64,000 bases of DNA, from contig CAZION010000016.1 of assembly GCA_964540865.1 (NCBI GenBank), positions 2,914-66,913 on the forward strand. The letters are read 5' to 3'. Numbering within the stretch: position 1 is the first letter of the stretch; every line of letters begins with the position of its first letter. Source of the stretch: an uncultured Victivallis sp. Lineage in GTDB: Bacteria > Verrucomicrobiota > Lentisphaeria > Victivallales > GWF2-50-93. Positions 918 to 55,169 of the stretch are shown piece by piece. The translations under genes were made by a program, and so were the position numbers. The notes under the pieces were generated by a model. That model had not been told where the DNA came from and made no database searches. It saw only the letters and a program-made list of their open reading frames with translations.

Positions 918-994
918 AGAAGTCAGGAGACAGAAGTCAGAATTAAACTTGAGCTCAAATCCAAATTTATTCTGACTACTGAACTCTGACTACT
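918..994. repeat. intergenic hairpin element A (word-duplicated arms, TTGAGCTCAA core)
   Basis: The left arm holds the 9-mer AGAAGTCAG twice (918-926, 932-940). The right arm holds TCTGACTACT twice (971-980, 985-994), and each pairs 8/9 with the left words. The loop contains the perfect palindrome TTGAGCTCAA (949-958). A small hairpin TCTCG/CGAGA (906-920) lies next to it. Confidence 0.7.
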
Positions 995-6082: not shown

Positions 6083-6249
6083 ACAAGGTAGGCCGGGCAT
6101 TCCTGCCTGTTCATTTAATTGCTTGAAAGCCCTCCCTCCCTCGGTTTTGCAGTATTTATTGTGAATTACACATAAACACGTTCGGAAAAAGACGCCAATT
6201 GAAGTTTAATTATCGGGAATTACATTATTCTAAAATTCTGGAGGTTCCA

Positions 6250-6474
6250 ATGACAGTCTTATTGCAGGAAGTGGAAGACAAGGCATTTAGCCTCTCCTTG
6301 CCGGAAAGAGGGCAGCTAATTCACGATTTGATTATCAATATAGACGGGGAGAATCAATTTTCCGGCGATTTCGAGATGGAGATTCAGAAAAGAATCAAGA
6401 AGATAAAGTCTGGCAAAGCAGTCGGAATACCTGCCGAGGATGTATTTTCCAGGATAGAGGCAAAATACAGATGA
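6250..6474 (+). CDS. addiction-module antitoxin (Unstab_antitox / TIGR02574-like)
   Basis: The track ORF starts at TTG 6199. I prefer ATG 6250, which sits behind GGAGG. The product MTVLLQEVEDKAFSLSLPERGQLIHDLI...IQKRIKKIKSGKAVGIPAEDVFSRIE matches the pattern of this antitoxin family. Its stop overlaps the toxin start (ATGA). Confidence 0.7.
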   Translation: MTVLLQEVEDKAFSLSLPERGQLIHDLIINIDGENQFSGDFEMEIQKRIKKIKSGKAVGIPAEDVFSRIEAKYR

Positions 6475-7212: not shown

Positions 7213-7376
7213 ACCGAGCAATAAGCAAGGGGAAACTAAGATTGATATCTCTCTTCGTGCCCTTCGCTTCTTCGCGGTGAAAAAGTTCCCGACGCCTTTG
7301 GGCCGGGATCTTCGACTTTGTGACTGTGTGCCTCTGTGAGAGGATAAAGGCTTTAGAATTTCACCCAGTTCGATAA

Positions 7377-25886: not shown

Positions 25887-26022
25887 TCCCTGTTTTTTAA
25901 TGAGAAAAAAAAGAACCCCGGTCTACGTTGGCGCCGCCCAAAGATTTTACGTCTCATGCTGACAATACTTCAACTCATTGACATAAACAATTTGTGTTTG
26001 GTGTTTCCGCAGAAGTAACTCT

Positions 26023-26214
26023 GGTCTATCTGACCCGGGATTCGCAGGGCAGATAGACCCGTGCTACTCTTAACTCAGCGCCATTCTAGTCAACCGTTAA
26101 GCTGGATTTTCATCGTATTACCCCTACCAGCTTAACTGGGAGAAAAAGATTGTTGGGCTAAGATCCACGGTGTTAGCAACCCAATCTTTGCTTCCCGTGG
26201 GATAAACCCACGGG
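26023..26214. other. array of strong stem-loops in a 470 bp intergenic region (candidate structured RNA or leader)
   Basis: H1 is GGTCTATCTG (26023-32) with CAGATAGACC (26050-59). H2 is GTTAAGCTGG (26096-26105) with CCAGCTTAAC (26127-36). H3 is an imperfect helix, 26138-57 with 26180-96, enclosing GCTAA/TTAGC. H4 is CCCGTGGG (26194-26201) with CCCACGGG (26207-14). CCACGG at 26165-70 could pair alternatively with H4. Confidence 0.4.
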
Positions 26215-26354
26215 GGACTGCTTATTGCTCTTCCCCCATTCGCCTTGATTTAAATAAAGATATCCCAGATTAACGGTTACGACACTCGAATCTTATCTTC
26301 AGGGAACATCTGCTTCATTCTGGCAAAAAGCGACAATAATTATATATTCCATCT

Positions 26355-28211
26355 ATGTCTTCAATTCAATACAATTATGATGTTGTCGTAATCGGTGGCG
26401 GCCATGCCGGCTGTGAAGCCGCACTTGCGGCTGCGCGGCTCGGAGCACGGACACTTCTCCTCACAATAAACATGGACCATATCGCCCAGATGAGCTGTAA
26501 TCCCGCAGTCGGAGGAATCGCGAAAGGACAGGTTGTCCGCGAAATTGACGCCCTCGGCGGTGGAATGGGGAAGATAACTGATGCGGCATCCATCCAATTC
26601 AGGATGCTGAACTGCGGAAAAGGACCCGCCGTATGGTCACCGCGGTCCCAATGCGACAAGGTCTGCTATCAGAAGGCCATGAAATTCGAACTGGAAAAAG
26701 CGGAAAACCTCATAATCCACCAGGCCGAAGCAAGCGGCTTTCTGACAGATGGCGACAAAATCTGCGGGGTTACAACAACATTCAATGAAACATTCAAATG
26801 CAAGAGCGCAGTTGTAGCTTCGGGAACTTTCCTTTCCGGAAAACTCCACTATGGCCTTCTTAATTATCCCGGAGGCCGCGCCGGAGATCCTCCGTCATGC
26901 AGCCTCTCCGAATCCCTGAGAGTACAACTCGGCATAAGGCTCGGCCGTTTAAAAACCGGCACACCGCCGCGGGTTCTTGCGAAAACAGTCAACTTTGAAA
27001 AAATGATTGTACAGGAAAGCGATTCCCCGGACGAATATTTCAGTTATTTTCCGGAAGACCAGGCATTCCCCCGGGCTCTCAAAAGGGCTATGCCATGCTA
27101 CCTTGTGAAAAGCACTTTTGAGACTTCGGAAATAATCAAAAACAACCTCCACAAATCCCCTCTTTACCAGGGAGTGATATCAGGTATAGGAACAAGATAC
27201 TGCCCTTCATTCGAGGACAAGGTCATACGCTTCCCGCATCACGAAACCCACCTGCTCTACCTCGAACCGGAAGGGGAGTTCACCGAGGAATACTATATCA
27301 ACGGAATATCAACAAGCCTCCCTCCGGAAGTGCAGGTGCAGATGCTCCATTCCATCCCCGGCCTCGAAAACGCCGTAATCTCAAGATATGCCTACGCCAT
27401 TGAATATGATTACGTCCATCCCGACCAGATGTCACGCAGCCTCGCAGTGAAAAAATGGCCCAACCTATTTCTGGCAGGACAGATCAACGGGACAAGCGGG
27501 TACGAGGAGGCGGCTGGACAGGGGCTTGTCGCAGGCATGAATTCTGCGAGGTTCGCAGGAGGTTTGGAATCGGTGGAGCTCGGCAGGGACAGTAGCTACA
27601 TCGGCGTAATGATTGATGATCTTGTGACAAAGGAGATTGTCGAGCCGTACCGCCTCTTCACAAGCCGCGCCGAATACAGGCTCATGCTAAGGCAGGACAA
27701 TGCCGATATCCGTCTCTGCCCCCTCGCCCACAGCATAGGGCTGCTACCGTCTGCGAAGTTCGCAAAATTCACTGCGTATTTCAACCGGCTCAAGGAAATT
27801 GAACAGAAGTACCGCACAGAAAAACATGAGAATCAGACACTCCACGGCCTTTTGAAAGCGTTTGGAGGAGTTGTCCCGCCAAAAATAGATTTCCCGCTGC
27901 CCTACCTCGATCTGTCATCCCAAGAGGACAGAAGAATCCTCAGGCAACTCATAATTTCATCCCATTACGAGGGTTATATTGAAAGAGAACTGAGGTCGGT
28001 GAAAAATCTCCAGAAGCTCGAACTCTGGAAGATTCCGAAGGATTTCAACTATGACGCCATAACCGGTCTGCGAAACGAGTCAAGGATGAAGCTCACGAAA
28101 ATCCTTCCCGGCACTCTCTCACAGGCTTCAAGGATTGACGGAGTTACTCCTGCAGAAATAAGCCTCCTGCAGGTGCACCTGAAAAGGATCTTTCAGCCAG
28201 CCCACAAATGA
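26355..28211 (+). CDS. mnmG: tRNA uridine 5-carboxymethylaminomethyl modification enzyme MnmG (GidA)
   Basis: The 618 aa ORF has YDVVVIGGGHAGCEAALAAARLGARTLLLT, MSCNPAVGGIAKGQVVREIDALGG, GTRYCPSFEDKV and FLAGQINGTSGYEEAAGQG. Confidence 0.96.
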   Translation: MSSIQYNYDVVVIGGGHAGCEAALAAARLGARTLLLTINMDHIAQMSCNPAVGGIAKGQVVREIDALGGGMGKITDAASIQFRMLNCGKGPAVWSPRSQCDKVCYQKAMKFELEKAENLIIHQAEASGFLTDGDKICGVTTTFNETFKCKSAVVASGTFLSGKLHYGLLNYPGGRAGDPPSCSLSESLRVQLGIRLGRLKTGTPPRVLAKTVNFEKMIVQESDSPDEYFSYFPEDQAFPRALKRAMPCYLVKSTFETSEIIKNNLHKSPLYQGVISGIGTRYCPSFEDKVIRFPHHETHLLYLEPEGEFTEEYYINGISTSLPPEVQVQMLHSIPGLENAVISRYAYAIEYDYVHPDQMSRSLAVKKWPNLFLAGQINGTSGYEEAAGQGLVAGMNSARFAGGLESVELGRDSSYIGVMIDDLVTKEIVEPYRLFTSRAEYRLMLRQDNADIRLCPLAHSIGLLPSAKFAKFTAYFNRLKEIEQKYRTEKHENQTLHGLLKAFGGVVPPKIDFPLPYLDLSSQEDRRILRQLIISSHYEGYIERELRSVKNLQKLELWKIPKDFNYDAITGLRNESRMKLTKILPGTLSQASRIDGVTPAEISLLQVHLKRIFQPAHK

Positions 28212-30659: not shown

Positions 30660-32060
30660 ATGAGGATCCCGTCAAGGATACACTTTGTAGGCGTCGGCGG
30701 AATCGGGATGAGCGGACTTGCGCAGATGCTTAAATGGCTCGGCTGCGATGTCAGCGGAAGCGACCGCGACATGGACAAACCTGAAAACTCGCGAATAATA
30801 GACTCATTGAGAAACTGCGGCATAAGGCTTTTCCCGCAGGACGGTTCCTTCATCTCAGAAGGCAAGACCGATGCAATGATTTATTCTACGGCGATAGAAA
30901 ATGACAATCCCGACTTCAAGGCCGGAGCCGACATACCGAAAATCCACAGGGCGGCAGCGCTCTCATCCGCCATAATATCCATGAAAGACGTGACATCCGT
31001 AGCCGTCACCGGAACCTGCGGAAAAACAACGGTCACATCATGGCTCGCAGAGACATTGGTTAAGATGGGACACGATCCGGCAATGCTGTCCGGCGGACTT
31101 GTGAACAATTTCTCATCTGCGAAGTTCGCAGGCAACTTCCGTCCTGGTAAAGGCAGATTTTTCATTTATGAAGCGGATGAAAGCGACAAGAGCCTTCTTG
31201 CCTTCAATCCAGACTATTCCCTTATATTGAACATAGGAAATGATCACTACCCGATAAATGAACTCACAGAGGTCTTCAGAAAATTCATCGGCAGCACTTC
31301 AAAAGGGGCGATACTTGAGGAATCCGTAGCGGAATATGTAGGCACCTTGGACGGCAGCAAGATAAAATATTTGGTATTTGGCTCAGGGGAGAAATGCGGA
31401 TGGCGACTCCTTTCATACAAGACCGAAAACAAGATTCCTATGGCGATGATAGAAAATAAATCCAGCGACAAAAGAATAAATCTTGCCCTGCCTTCACCCG
31501 GCCTGCATATGGCGATGAATGCCGTTTCCGTATTGGCAACACTCGACATACTCGGATTGTACAGCCCTGACTGCCACAAATATATTTCATCATTCGGCGG
31601 AGTCTGGAGGCGTTTCAACATCAAGGGCAACCTGCCTTCCGGCGCTCTCATTATTGACGATTACGCGCATAATCCCGAAAAGATAGGTTCATGCATCAGG
31701 ACGGCAAAAGAAATAACTGCAGGCAGGATTTTCGCGGTTTTCCAGCCGCACGGATTCGGCCCCTTGAAATTCATGAAGGATAATCTTTTCAAGGAGCTTG
31801 AAAAGATTATATCCAAAGAGGATAAATTCATATTGCTTCCTGTTTTCTATGCTGGTGGGACGACTTCGTTCAGTCCGACATCAGAGGAGGTTGTTTCTGA
31901 ATTCGATTCCAGGGGGGGAAACAATTTCATGTTCTTCAAAACCCGTGATCATCTGGAAAAATATCTGAAAGCAGAAACATGCGCAAATGACACGGTTGTA
32001 ATTCTGGGGGCGAGAGACAATTCACTTTCCACTTGGACGGAGGAAATTGCAAGTTCATGA
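30660..32060 (+). CDS. murC: UDP-N-acetylmuramate--L-alanine ligase
   Basis: The ORF has IHFVGVGGIGMSGLAQMLKWLGCDVSGSD, VTGTCGKTTVTSW, YEADESDKS, IIDDYAHNPEKI and FQPHGF, the Mur ligase motifs in MurC-like order. The start is ATG 30660 (track GTG 30645). Confidence 0.8.
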   Translation: MRIPSRIHFVGVGGIGMSGLAQMLKWLGCDVSGSDRDMDKPENSRIIDSLRNCGIRLFPQDGSFISEGKTDAMIYSTAIENDNPDFKAGADIPKIHRAAALSSAIISMKDVTSVAVTGTCGKTTVTSWLAETLVKMGHDPAMLSGGLVNNFSSAKFAGNFRPGKGRFFIYEADESDKSLLAFNPDYSLILNIGNDHYPINELTEVFRKFIGSTSKGAILEESVAEYVGTLDGSKIKYLVFGSGEKCGWRLLSYKTENKIPMAMIENKSSDKRINLALPSPGLHMAMNAVSVLATLDILGLYSPDCHKYISSFGGVWRRFNIKGNLPSGALIIDDYAHNPEKIGSCIRTAKEITAGRIFAVFQPHGFGPLKFMKDNLFKELEKIISKEDKFILLPVFYAGGTTSFSPTSEEVVSEFDSRGGNNFMFFKTRDHLEKYLKAETCANDTVVILGARDNSLSTWTEEIASS

Positions 32061-32064
32061 GTTG

Positions 32065-32165
32065 AATATCCAATATCCAACACGGAATATCCAATCTCTA
32101 AGTTAAGATTTTCTTGAATTCAATTCCGATGGGAACTGGAAATTGAGTGTTGGATCTTGGGTGTT
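32065..32165. repeat. intergenic hairpin element B (TTGAATTCAA core)
   Basis: 32065-32083 (AATATCCAATATCCAACAC) pairs with 32147-32165 (GTGTTGGATCTTGGGTGTT) as a 19-bp helix with 1 mismatch and 2 G-U pairs. The 63-nt interior holds the perfect palindrome TTGAATTCAA (32114-32123). A third AATATCCAA lies at 32086-94. Nearby, the direct 12-mer TTCCGAACTCTC occurs twice (32214-25, 32229-40). Confidence 0.7.
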
Positions 32166-32258
32166 CAAAATTTGACCATACGGTTAAATTAGACAAGTCT
32201 CTAACTTCCGCATTTCCGAACTCTCAAATTCCGAACTCTCCACACTGCAACTCGGCCA

Positions 32259-37619: not shown

Positions 37620-37660
37620 TGCACCATCACCCCAGACTTGTCAAAAAATAAACACTTAGC

Positions 37661-37722
37661 GTCCAAGTGTCCAAGTTAAGTGGGATTAAAACTCAAAACC
37701 CAAGGCACTTGGTCACTGGGAC
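37661..37722. repeat. intergenic hairpin element D (probable terminator on the - strand)
   Basis: GTCCAAGT occurs twice in tandem (37661-76) and pairs with ACTTGGTC and ACTGGGAC (37707-22), each 7/8. The loop TAAGTGGGATTAAAACTCAAAACCCAAGGC resembles the element A loop. On the - strand the hairpin is followed by TTTATTTTTT (complement of 37642-51). Confidence 0.65.
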
Positions 37723-37771
37723 ACTTTCCCCCTACCGTTCGGAGATAAAATACGCGGTGAAATTGCAATTC

Positions 37772-40894: not shown

Positions 40895-41971
<1,077 letters not shown>

Positions 41972-51667: not shown

Positions 51668-53029
51668 TTATTTTTTCCTCGGATCAAATGAATAAAGACC
51701 AGTGGTTATAGTCCAGGCGTCATCCATCGGCATCTTTTTGTTTTCATGTTCTTTGCCCCATGAGTCGGAGTATATGATCTCATTCTTCTCCTTGTTATAA
51801 CCGGAAATTACGCGCATATGCCCCCCCGCCACCTGCGGAAGCCCCTTCTCCTTCACCACCCCGAGTATCACGCTCCATATGAGCGGGATGCCCAGGTCAA
51901 CGTGTTTCATGATATCACCCTGAAAATTTTTAAATCCGCTTTTATCTTTTTCGCATCTTGCCTTCTTCAGCAGTTCTGGATCCATGTCATTGTAAATTCC
52001 GCCGACATCGATGCTGTTTCCATATGTTATCTGTTTTTTGCCGGCTTTCTTTGCAAATTTGTTGTACTCATTCACCATCCCTATGAACGATTGAATCTTG
52101 ATTTCCTCGTGAGTTCTCACCAACACACCAAACTTAGACTGGACTTTTTTCAGCATATCTAACATTTCCTCAGAGCTGGTTCCTTTTGTGGCAGAAGAGT
52201 TTGAAAGCTGAGCAAGCATGTTCTGATCGACGTCCGTTCCATAATATTTTAGAATACGTTCAGCAGTCGCAACGGCACAGTAACCCTTGGCCCCCTGGTC
52301 AACCATGGGAATATTTTCAATATAAACAAATCCGTCCGCATCCTTCTTCACATTCTGTTTGATGTCTATTGCTGAAGCTGTATCAGCTTTTCTCGGATAG
52401 GACGCTATTCTCCTCGGATCGTTTTTCGGATCGTATTTACCTATTATGATCTTAATGTATTCCGCCCTGAATTTTATTGTCCTGTCTTTCGCCCTGGGAG
52501 CTTCAAGATCCTGTGTCTTGATGCGCTCACTTGCACTCCACCTTAGTTCAATGGCAAGGTTATTGTTCTTAACCCAGACCTTCTTTTCAAGATACATTCC
52601 CGTCTTAAGTCTTTCTTTTGGTATGGTAACCCCCTTGTCCAGGCTCCATCCGTCCAACTTGCCAATCATTTCATCAACTGTCGCCTGAAAAGTTTTTTCA
52701 TCGCTTATATCCCCGGAATCGCCACGATTATAGGTTAAAATTTCAATCTGGCCTACTTTACCCTCTTCAAACCTGATAATTGTCTCCCATGATTTCATGC
52801 CGAGGAATGTCATACCCGGACTATTGCTGTACCCTGGGTATCTGACTTCGTTTTTCTTATCAGAGAGCCATTTGAAATACATTTCATTGCTTCCATCAAG
52901 AAACTTATCGGATGAGATGTCCCAAAGTTTTTCATCATCGATAAAGGTTTCAAGTTTGGAAAAATCGGCAGAGAATGCGTTAAGACAAAACGTAAGTATG
53001 GCTAAAGCCGGGATAAATAGCTTGTTCAT
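51668..53029 (-). CDS. secreted protein with C-terminal papain-fold (C39-like) cysteine peptidase-like domain
   Basis: It has a signal peptide (MNKLFIPALAILTFCLNAFSA). The C-terminal half has GAKGYCAVATAERILKYYG (candidate catalytic Cys) and GGHMRVISGYNKEKNEIIYSDSWG (candidate His). I prefer ATG 53029 over 53035 because of GGAGA spacing. Confidence 0.4.
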   Translation of the reverse strand: MNKLFIPALAILTFCLNAFSADFSKLETFIDDEKLWDISSDKFLDGSNEMYFKWLSDKKNEVRYPGYSNSPGMTFLGMKSWETIIRFEEGKVGQIEILTYNRGDSGDISDEKTFQATVDEMIGKLDGWSLDKGVTIPKERLKTGMYLEKKVWVKNNNLAIELRWSASERIKTQDLEAPRAKDRTIKFRAEYIKIIIGKYDPKNDPRRIASYPRKADTASAIDIKQNVKKDADGFVYIENIPMVDQGAKGYCAVATAERILKYYGTDVDQNMLAQLSNSSATKGTSSEEMLDMLKKVQSKFGVLVRTHEEIKIQSFIGMVNEYNKFAKKAGKKQITYGNSIDVGGIYNDMDPELLKKARCEKDKSGFKNFQGDIMKHVDLGIPLIWSVILGVVKEKGLPQVAGGHMRVISGYNKEKNEIIYSDSWGKEHENKKMPMDDAWTITTGLYSFDPRKK

Positions 53030-53050
53030 TTCCATTCTCCAGCGGATTAT

Positions 53051-53200
53051 TGGATTGCTGGATTAATGGATTGTTGTAAATCAAAGAGTTATGCAAAAAA
53101 TCACCATATGGGAAAAATCCGAAATGCCTATTCTGAAATTTTCTTAAAATCCAGTATCTATGGTTTTTCTTGAACTCAAACCCAATAATCCAGCAATCCA
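53051..53200. repeat. intergenic hairpin element C (TTGAACTCAA core)
   Basis: A perfect 15-bp inverted repeat, TGGATTGCTGGATTA (53051-65) with TAATCCAGCAATCCA (53186-200). The left arm is a run of TGGATT words. The core TTTTTCTTGAACTCAAACCC (53170-79 palindrome-like) lies next to the right arm. Confidence 0.7.
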
Positions 53201-53473
53201 TTAGTCCGTCATCCTGTGGGATGACTGTGAAATCTTTATATTTCATGCCAGGTGAAGGTAGTCAGACGACCGGGTAAAATCAAGATGGAATTTTGAAATT
53301 TGTAGAATTAACGCAATTGCAATCTTCACATTACGCTCTCGGAAAAGAAACTGCTCCAGGCAGAACTGCATGAATTCTCCCAAATACTTGCCACTTACGA
53401 GATTGCTCGGAAAAAGTCTGCATAACTTTCAGCCTCATATTTTGCCAATCTTGGGATATTGATCCGGCAGAAT

Positions 53474-55049: not shown

Positions 55050-55169
55050 AACAAAAGAAAATCAAAGCCGCCCCAAGGGTCTGGGAATTTGACCCATTAA
55101 GATGAAAAATCCATAATTTTTTATTGTTTAGAGCTTGACAAAGATCTATTATTATCTAATATTATCGTC

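Follow-up and report, generated by a model that had tools for sequence, protein, structure and literature searches.

Four hairpin sites in a Victivallales genome

The DNA analysed here is a 64-kb stretch (the window in what follows; G+C ~46%) from a Victivallales bacterium (Lentisphaerota), a little-studied group of gut and sediment bacteria. The PurD protein encoded beside one of the elements described below finds its best matches, at 95-86% identity, in Victivallales MAGs; a cyanobacterial origin, entertained as a candidate, was given up when the organism turned out to be Victivallales. Four sites in gene spacers of the window, A to D, are the subject of this report. Element A is flanked by a CxxCxxCC-domain gene and a gene of unknown function, with a gene also adjoining for an AroB that is 100% identical to a protein encoded on an NCBI contig; B lies at the convergent ends of murC and purD; C is flanked by an AAA_14/DUF4143 ATPase gene and a C39-like peptidase gene; and D neighbours a 102-aa gene and a DUF58 gene. 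An earlier note had placed each site just 3' of a gene end, which is right for one neighbour at every site, while A, C and D are also just 5' of the next gene.

A repeat finder confirms at each site the architecture that the earlier note had proposed, namely a long, imperfect inverted repeat with arms composed of short tandem words. The arms of A (918-946 and 966-994; 29 nt, 76% complementary) hold two copies of AGAAGTCAG on the left and two of TCTGACTACT on the right; those of B (32062-32093 and 32137-32168) are 32 nt long and 81% complementary; those of C (53043-53072 and 53179-53208; 30 nt, 87% complementary) are built of 8-nt GGATTNNT units; and those of D (37658-37687 and 37696-37725) are 30 nt long and 73% complementary. 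In a window-wide scan for inverted repeats, the three longest pairs are those of C, B and A. Folding of A, B, C and D is far more stable than that of shuffled sequence on both strands (z from -3.6 to -5.9). Stem lengths vary widely and so do the loops of A, B and C, at 19, 43 and 106 nt.

The sequence TTGARYTCAA occurs at exactly three sites in the window, one apiece in A, B and C. Three matches were reached in 5 of 100 shuffled sequences; because the only three sites coincide with the three longest inverted repeats, the association of this core with hairpins goes far beyond chance. The perfect 10-bp palindrome reported for A and B is real on reading the sequence. A shared interior motif had been claimed for all four sites, and this holds for A, B and C; D has only CTCAAAACC. 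The true boundaries are wider than first drawn, at 890-1008 for A and 53030-53229 for C. The elements thus delimited measure 119 bp (A), ~105 bp (B) and 200 bp (C, with a family mode of 209 bp), and all are non-coding: the list of open reading frames has one short mechanical frame across C (52980..53246, 88 aa), and A and B contain none.

One further structured region of the window may be mentioned here. Upstream of a GIDA/mnmG-like gene (26355-28211), positions 25990-26240 hold long hairpins at 26014-26068 and 26138-26196, followed by a GC stem. The region gives no Rfam match at E <= 1 and contains neither a tRNA nor a tmRNA; another repeat, or a structured RNA of an undescribed kind, may account for it.

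Element C and the family with 9-bp target-site duplications

Element C (53030-53229) is an old copy of a family of MITEs, 75-96% identical to more than 40 copies elsewhere. Its left arm (53043-53072) repeats GGATTNNT and its right arm (53179-53208) repeats ANNAATCC; its core, on the plus strand at 53165-53183, reads TTTTCTTGAACTCAAACCC and varies least of all internal blocks in the family. The right terminal tip is intact (GTCATCCTGTGGGATGACTGTG, 53208-53229) and corresponds, in inverted form, to the left tip of the family, CACTGCCGTCCCATGG. The left tip of the window copy has degenerated, and it overlaps both the GGAG ribosome-binding site and the start of the gene at 51668-53035; no target-site duplication is recognisable around this copy. 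As regards that gene, which encodes the C39-like peptidase, the likely start is an ATG at 53029, followed by a signal-peptide-like N-terminus, and its GGAG is overlapped or supplied by the left tip of C (53030-53045).

The >40 copies come from other Victivallales genomes and metagenomes, with a family length of ~209 bp. A scan of a genome collection with the 19-nt core yielded 11 C-type copies in 10 genome loci, at non-orthologous sites and 75-96% identical to the whole of C, and a metagenome scan with a C-specific 22-mer added 36 further loci, 21 of the hits lying on 2.34 Mb of contigs from a single metagenome. The idea that arms are specific to each copy therefore gives way to one of arms specific to each family: the C arms are found in those >40 other copies, and the A and B arms also occur at other loci.

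Terminal inverted repeats are conserved throughout the C family (CACTGCCGTCCCATGG… / …GGGATGACTCTG). When copies are anchored on the core the ends are sharp, with CACTGCCGTCCCATGGAT on the left and CCGTCATCCTGTGGGATGAC(T/A)(C/G)TG on the right, mutually inverted; the right tip also takes the written forms GGGATGAC(T/A)(C/G)TG and CAGAGTCATCCCACAGG. Perfect 9-bp target-site duplications flank 11 of the 26 full copies, with 8 of 9 positions matching in one more and 7 of 9 in two. The duplicated targets are AT-rich (for example ATTTGATTA, AAGCAATTC, AAATAGAAC, AATATAATA and CTTTCCATA). Truncated, deleted and chimeric copies also belong to the family.

In an alignment of 24 copies, TCTTGAAYTCAAACCCAAT is invariant or nearly so and an interior of ~105 nt varies by subfamily. 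The word arrays, conserved in every copy, pass without a break into the tips. The ends of the family are long, at ~55-60 nt. At the inner edge of the left array a shorter, degenerate counterpart of the core can be made out by eye (GGGTATCAAAGA, against the reverse complement GGGTTTGAGTTCAAGA); since the core itself abuts the right array, it behaves in this family like the innermost segment of a right end that is long and complex. The arms of one subfamily (ii) are peculiar in that each right-arm unit is the reverse complement of a left-arm unit, yet the units keep the same left-to-right order, which a true inverted repeat would reverse; matched in that order they differ by 1.23 mismatches per unit, versus 1.65 in strict hairpin register.

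C-type copies occupy convergent, divergent (promoter-region) and co-directional spacers, including positions beside gene starts. Among 37 copies, orientation relative to the flanking genes shows a modest bias (10:3 in co-directional contexts). The first 13 copies had pointed strongly to a strict polarity, in which transcription of the element always runs antisense to the core; this was dropped when the larger sample gave that 10:3 ratio.

Prokaryotic MITEs have been defined as elements of <500 bp that are non-coding, with terminal inverted repeats, decaying duplications, AT-rich intergenic targets and a stable fold (PMC10969869, section 2.1). Because C and its relatives are small and non-coding and show all of the other features of this definition (PMC10969869), the C family is a textbook MITE.

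Element A and a second abundant group

Element A (890-1008, 119 bp) is a MITE of a second abundant group, whose ends are unlike those of C. Its clean right tip, ACTTTTGAAATTGGCTC (992-1008), matches the GAGSYAATTTCAAAA tips (tip-1) of dozens of Victivallales inverted-repeat elements, and its left tip, GCACTGATTGCAAAACT (890-906), is a degenerate inverted copy of tip-1. Between them lie the left arm (918-946, with its two AGAAGTCAG words), the core CTTGAGCTCAAATCC (948-962, plus strand), which encloses the 10-bp palindrome, and the right arm (966-994, with two TCTGACTACT words). The whole is bracketed by identical 5-bp copies of ACTAT at 885-889 and 1009-1013, for which the probability of a chance match is at the ~1% level given the freedom in placing the boundary. 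Duplications of 4-5 bp flank tip-1 elements elsewhere (AGATT at L128, TTAC at L119 and ACGGT/ACAGT at L125, L numbers designating the loci used for comparison).

Clean members of the tip-1 group, with GC-rich interiors, lie at L119 7245-7356 and L128 2452-2563. Closer to A are copies at the non-orthologous sites L118 11279-11398 and L125 from ~6918, which carry AGTCAG-type words and a core-like block; some other tip-1 elements have wholly different interiors without the core. No empty A site was recovered in relatives, where the synteny around aroB and the CxxCxxCC gene differs.

The tip-1 group also appears at L125 9773-10842, where two inverted 126-bp tip-1 MITE copies (93% identical) flank a putative toxin-antitoxin pair made up of a 142-aa ORF, presumably PIN-like, and a 72-aa ORF. 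The arrangement may be a MITE-bounded mobile cassette.

Element B in the murC-purD spacer

Element B (32063-32167) has inverted ends TGAATATCCAATATCC... / ...GGGTGTTCA and arms at 32062-32093 and 32137-32168; its core, TTTTCTTGAATTCAATTCC, lies on the plus strand at 32109-32127 and is identical to the C core at 18 of 19 positions. Inverted ends of the B type (TGAATATCCAATATCCAACACGGAATATCCAA / ...GGATATTCA) recur at L095, L119, L120 and L152, and their dispersal extends to five other loci in total, so that B represents a third dispersed family with inverted ends of its own. Interiors in this family range from ~40 to >400 nt. A B-type form of ~215 bp shares ATTTTCTTAAAA...TTGAACTCAA with the interior of C, and B and C therefore have more in common than the core. 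Four complete B-type copies were inspected for a target-site duplication, and none has one.

The purD-murC spacer is 28 nt long in the closest relative (95% PurD identity), which lacks B, versus 198 nt in the window, and spacer lengths in the purD/murC neighbourhood vary strongly among close relatives in general (3 vs 107 nt as well as 198 vs 28 nt). Compared with L118 8600-8745 and the end of L116, the window lacks at 32040-32060 a short hairpin rich in GC, GGMTTTCCAGCCCGTTT, that these relatives have between or after murC and purD, and it has B in that place. The C-terminus of MurC is native at the B site. A tip-1-like sequence at the left of B (GAGGAAATTGCAAGT) was considered as a left tip and rejected, being native murC coding sequence conserved in the relative without B.

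Word repeats of other kinds occur in the window and at other loci. Beside B, at 32190-32258, a 12-nt word (TTCCGAACTCTC) occurs twice with AAA between and no inverted partner, and further spacer word repeats lie in the window at, for example, 41910-41943, 55144-55166 and 7314-7339. Downstream of purD in L118 (6215-6860), three word-arm hairpins (words CTTTGTCG, GGTGTCA and AACATCC) alternate with a conserved linker of ~50 nt, AAAGTTGCGGC..CCGCCTAATTCAAGGTATAGGAATTTCAAAGT. L127 holds, at 6155-6442, four tandem repeats of ~96 nt, each with TTCGCCGAGACGGCGAA; L086, L144 and L014 contain a similar unit.

Element D

Element D (37658-37726, minus strand) is a word-arm hairpin with GTCCAAGT words and without tips, and its membership in the element family is doubtful. 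It shares only CTCAAAACC with the core, a 9-mer class found seven times in the window versus 3.3 expected, and has neither terminal tips nor a target-site duplication. Its arms are kept at the orthologous site in L118 and L119 (86-88% PurD identity), where the interior differs and TTTYGAG alone is retained; a search of related loci found no copies beyond that orthologous site. On the minus strand, which is the transcribed one, a T-run follows the stem, and a terminator scan gives two terminator-like matches. Most probably D is an old hairpin or terminator that has become fixed, possibly a relic, and it alone among the four may qualify as an intrinsic (Rho-independent) terminator.

A core shared between families

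The cores of B and C agree at 18 of the 19 positions of TTTTCTTGAAYTCAAWNCC; what A has in common is the palindrome together with the ...AATCC tail. The core of C (TTGAACTCAA) is invariant, though it is no palindrome. Relative to the stems, the core is placed differently in A, B and C. A scan of the genome collection with the 19-nt core returned 115 loci, 10 of them in Lentisphaerae/Victivallales; the other 105 are single chance hits scattered across other taxa with AT-rich genomes. Core hits outside Lentisphaerae lack a spanning inverted repeat (mean score 7.75, sd 1.2, maximum 13), whereas the score is 19-22.5 in three of eight Lentisphaerae copies and stands at 17 for B and 18 for C in the window. 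The value of the scan lay in its 10 Lentisphaerae loci, which stood out from the chance background. A reading of the core as a sigma-70 promoter, with TTGAAC as the -35 box, was abandoned, no consistent -10 box being found by eye or by scan.

The same core accompanies different tips and different duplication lengths (9 bp, ~5 bp and none seen), which suggests exchange or nesting between elements, deep ancestry with fast-evolving ends, or a shared functional need. The block common to the families, TTTTCTTGARYTCAAWNCC, sits internally just inside the right arm. Such a block could have been inherited by, or exchanged between, related elements, or it could be a cis site for transposition, bound by an accessory transposase or a host factor.

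A rival explanation holds that the word-arm hairpin with its core is a module in its own right, a small mobile unit that is nested, or carried as cargo, in MITE backbones of unrelated kinds (with 5-bp-duplication tips, 9-bp-duplication tips or B-type ends), much as very small dispersed repeats are nested in the heptamer arrays and minitransposons of cyanobacteria. The location of the core just inside the right arm, despite differing termini and duplication lengths, is what such a module would leave behind, and the tip-1 elements with other interiors and no core, the tip-1/C-type hybrids at L122 and L130, and the clear nesting of other tiny GC-rich palindromes at several positions all fit as well. 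We nonetheless regard it as unlikely: no free-standing unit of core plus arms with a duplication of its own was seen, the word arrays of the C family are continuous with the tips in every copy, as true ends would be, and the hybrids can be explained by ordinary nesting and deletion. A broader formulation, that core and word-arm hairpin are either a transferable module that has spread into three or more minitransposon backbones of different mechanism (5-bp duplications, 9-bp duplications and B-type ends) or are retained because they serve the element or its host, for example as an RNA hairpin or a site for a host factor, is likewise unlikely.

The GC-rich palindromes deserve description on their own account. 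They are found nested in the arms of different MITE families or beside the core and comprise TCCGCCRCGGCGGA (14 nt), TTCGCC-N3-GGCGAA (15 nt) and CTGTCTGCGTGTACGCACAGGCAG (24 nt); the last directly follows the core in one A-type and one B-type copy. Sites of these modules include L118 6670, L119 2686, L095 2195, L125 6936, L144 6088, L137 3669 and L158 7107; L115 3153, L120 963, L122 236, L149 1605, L151 2215, L152 819 and L154 12272; and also L026 ~2596 and L125 6995. They look like an extra layer of ultra-small insertions.

Mobile DNA and the question of RNA

Taken together, A, B and C are probably short non-coding mobile DNA (MITEs) with ends bound by a transposase supplied in trans. By analogy with the mechanism of DDE transposons, the ends would be inverted because one such transposase must bind both. 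It would cut an AT-rich intergenic target in a staggered fashion, and gap repair would then duplicate 9 bp in the case of C or ~5 bp in the case of A. The arms would be arrays of 7-9-nt words within sub-terminal end sequences, the number of words shifting by slippage; different families having different words, an impression of covarying arms results. Once transcribed, the elements would fold into very stable hairpins, and a secondary action on mRNA 3' ends is possible. At the murC-purD spacer, B would have replaced the GC-rich hairpin of relatives.

The search for a parent covered ~430 kb of Victivallales loci as well as viral contigs, and found no autonomous insertion sequence or transposase with matching ends. 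A composite at L086, in which two C copies flank genes for a GDSL lipase and a DUF1559 protein, contains no transposase. Three other candidate parents were set aside: L124 is a solo tip, L136 a chance match, and the viral L156 a match in a coding region. A long-range search for inverted repeats brought up only the MITE-flanked toxin-antitoxin pair. Several points count against the mobile-DNA reading besides the missing parent. No target-site duplication was seen in any of four complete B-type copies; the window copy of C has a degenerate left tip and no duplication; and the left tip of A is degenerate, with a 5-bp duplication that chance could produce at the ~1% level. Simple descent from one parent does not predict one core in families with different tips and duplication lengths, and the orientation bias and the stability of the transcribed strand leave room for a role at the RNA level.

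How much room can be judged from the case for cis-acting RNA hairpins under structural selection (3'-UTR stabilisers, non-canonical terminators or processing sites), with dispersal as a secondary matter. The folds are very stable, slightly more so on the transcribed strand for A, C and D, and the G-U pairs of B favour one strand. Each of the four window copies directly follows a gene, the co-directional C-type copies have their 10:3 bias, B takes the place of the relatives' GC hairpin between convergent genes, and D has its T-run after the stem. Against this, the terminator scan found no canonical U-tract terminator in A, B or C on either strand, and none of A, B, C and D matches an Rfam family, whether at the gathering threshold or at E <= 1. 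Copies of the C type also stand in divergent promoter regions and beside gene starts, and the tips and target-site duplications are signatures of DNA transposition that an RNA function leaves unexplained.

Within the C family there is essentially no covariation: RNAalifold on 24 copies gives a covariation term of -0.39 kcal/mol, with double changes in 2 of 24 pairs, and its sole covarying arm pair joins the outermost left unit to the innermost right unit. In subfamily ii, as noted above, pairing the arm units in the same order leaves fewer mismatches than the strict hairpin register does. The arms seem to covary because transposon ends are inverted copies of each other, and not through selection on an RNA fold. 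We therefore consider RNA hairpins as the primary identity of these elements quite improbable, and treat an RNA-level role as a possible exaptation and not as their nature.

Of the two readings that the earlier note had offered, that of an RNA family with a protein- or dimer-binding loop is not supported, in view of the missing Rfam match, the differing geometry and the small covariation term. The other, a DNA element that generates its own flanking repeats, was right about mobile DNA; the words, though, are the element's own inverted ends, and what the flank receives is the target-site duplication.

A reading of the palindrome TTGA-N2-TCAA in the core as the operator of a dimeric DNA-binding regulator, with the hairpins incidental, is most improbable: perfect 10-bp palindromes in A and B and the standing of the core as the most invariant internal block of the C family would suit it, yet the C core is invariant without being palindromic, the sites lie downstream of unrelated housekeeping genes with no promoter-like context, and copy number and duplications point to mobility.

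Relation to known repeats

Two other kinds of known element can be set aside. REP and REPIN are GC-rich imperfect palindromes of 20-40 nt, usually headed by GTAG or CGTC, arranged in doublets and associated with a RAYT gene. They do not describe the present elements, which are 105-209 bp long and AT-rich, with word arrays, tips and duplications, and no GTAG or CGTC heads occur in the sequences read. Integron attC sites were rejected in view of the housekeeping flanking genes, the lack of R'/R'' core sites at the ends of the sequences read, and the presence of tips and duplications.

The nearest published analogues are prokaryotic MITEs at large and the BrickBuilt MITE. The likeness to MITEs in general (Correia/NEMIS, Chunjie, QMITE2 and MITEAba12; PMC10969869) extends to size, inverted repeats and duplications that decay with age, and further to AT-rich targets, tens of copies per genome, truncated copies and size variants, stable stem-loop transcripts, and clustering and nesting (PMC10969869). 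The elements here differ in their long ends (~55-60 nt in C) with 7-9-nt word arrays of variable unit number, and in that three families with different tips share one internal core and their parent insertion sequence was not found. Tandem short units, an always intergenic location and multiple copies also characterise the BrickBuilt MITE of Porphyromonas gingivalis (PMC4596501); in that MITE a 23-nt minisatellite forms a direct array inside the element, flanked by leader and tail subunits (PMC4596501), whereas here two inverted arrays form the arms.

BOX/RUP/SPRITE and ERIC repeats are likewise modular and hairpin-forming, often lie just downstream of genes, cluster, insert into one another, and may affect mRNA stability or termination. 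BOX elements have the order boxA-(boxB)n-boxC, in contrast to the inverted word arrays around a shared core seen here, and sequence similarity is not expected.

The small dispersed repeats (SDR) of cyanobacteria are 21-27 nt long, follow defined consensus sequences and lie nested within heptamer arrays or HIP1. In Nostoc, Elhai and colleagues reportedly described in 2008 such repeats nested in tandem heptamer repeats and minitransposons. They resemble the present elements in having a conserved block between short-word repeats, and the 14-15-nt GC palindromes found here behave similarly. The comparison is a lead, made across phyla, and differs in that the conserved block here is tied to tips and target duplications.

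A literature search found no description of published repeats or MITEs of Lentisphaerae/Victivallales. The earlier note had counted a match to a known REP or MITE family against its own proposal, and in spirit this is what came about: the elements fit the definition of a MITE, while no published description of the families themselves was found. We thus appear to be dealing with a known kind of mobile DNA, in apparently undescribed families of unusual modular build.

Implications for Victivallales genomes

Conspicuous intergenic hairpins in Victivallales are explained here as mobile DNA, and should not be annotated as regulatory RNAs or terminators. The consensus ends and duplication lengths provide markers with which to look for the parent transposases and for strain-level insertion polymorphism in MAGs. 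Insertions of this kind touch expression signals, C overlapping a ribosome-binding site and B replacing the shared murC/purD hairpin. The occurrence of one core across different ends poses a small but real puzzle for the origin and recombination of minitransposons. If the module reading is true, it would, together with the nested 14-15-nt GC palindromes, point to an SDR-like layer of ultra-small mobile DNA outside cyanobacteria.
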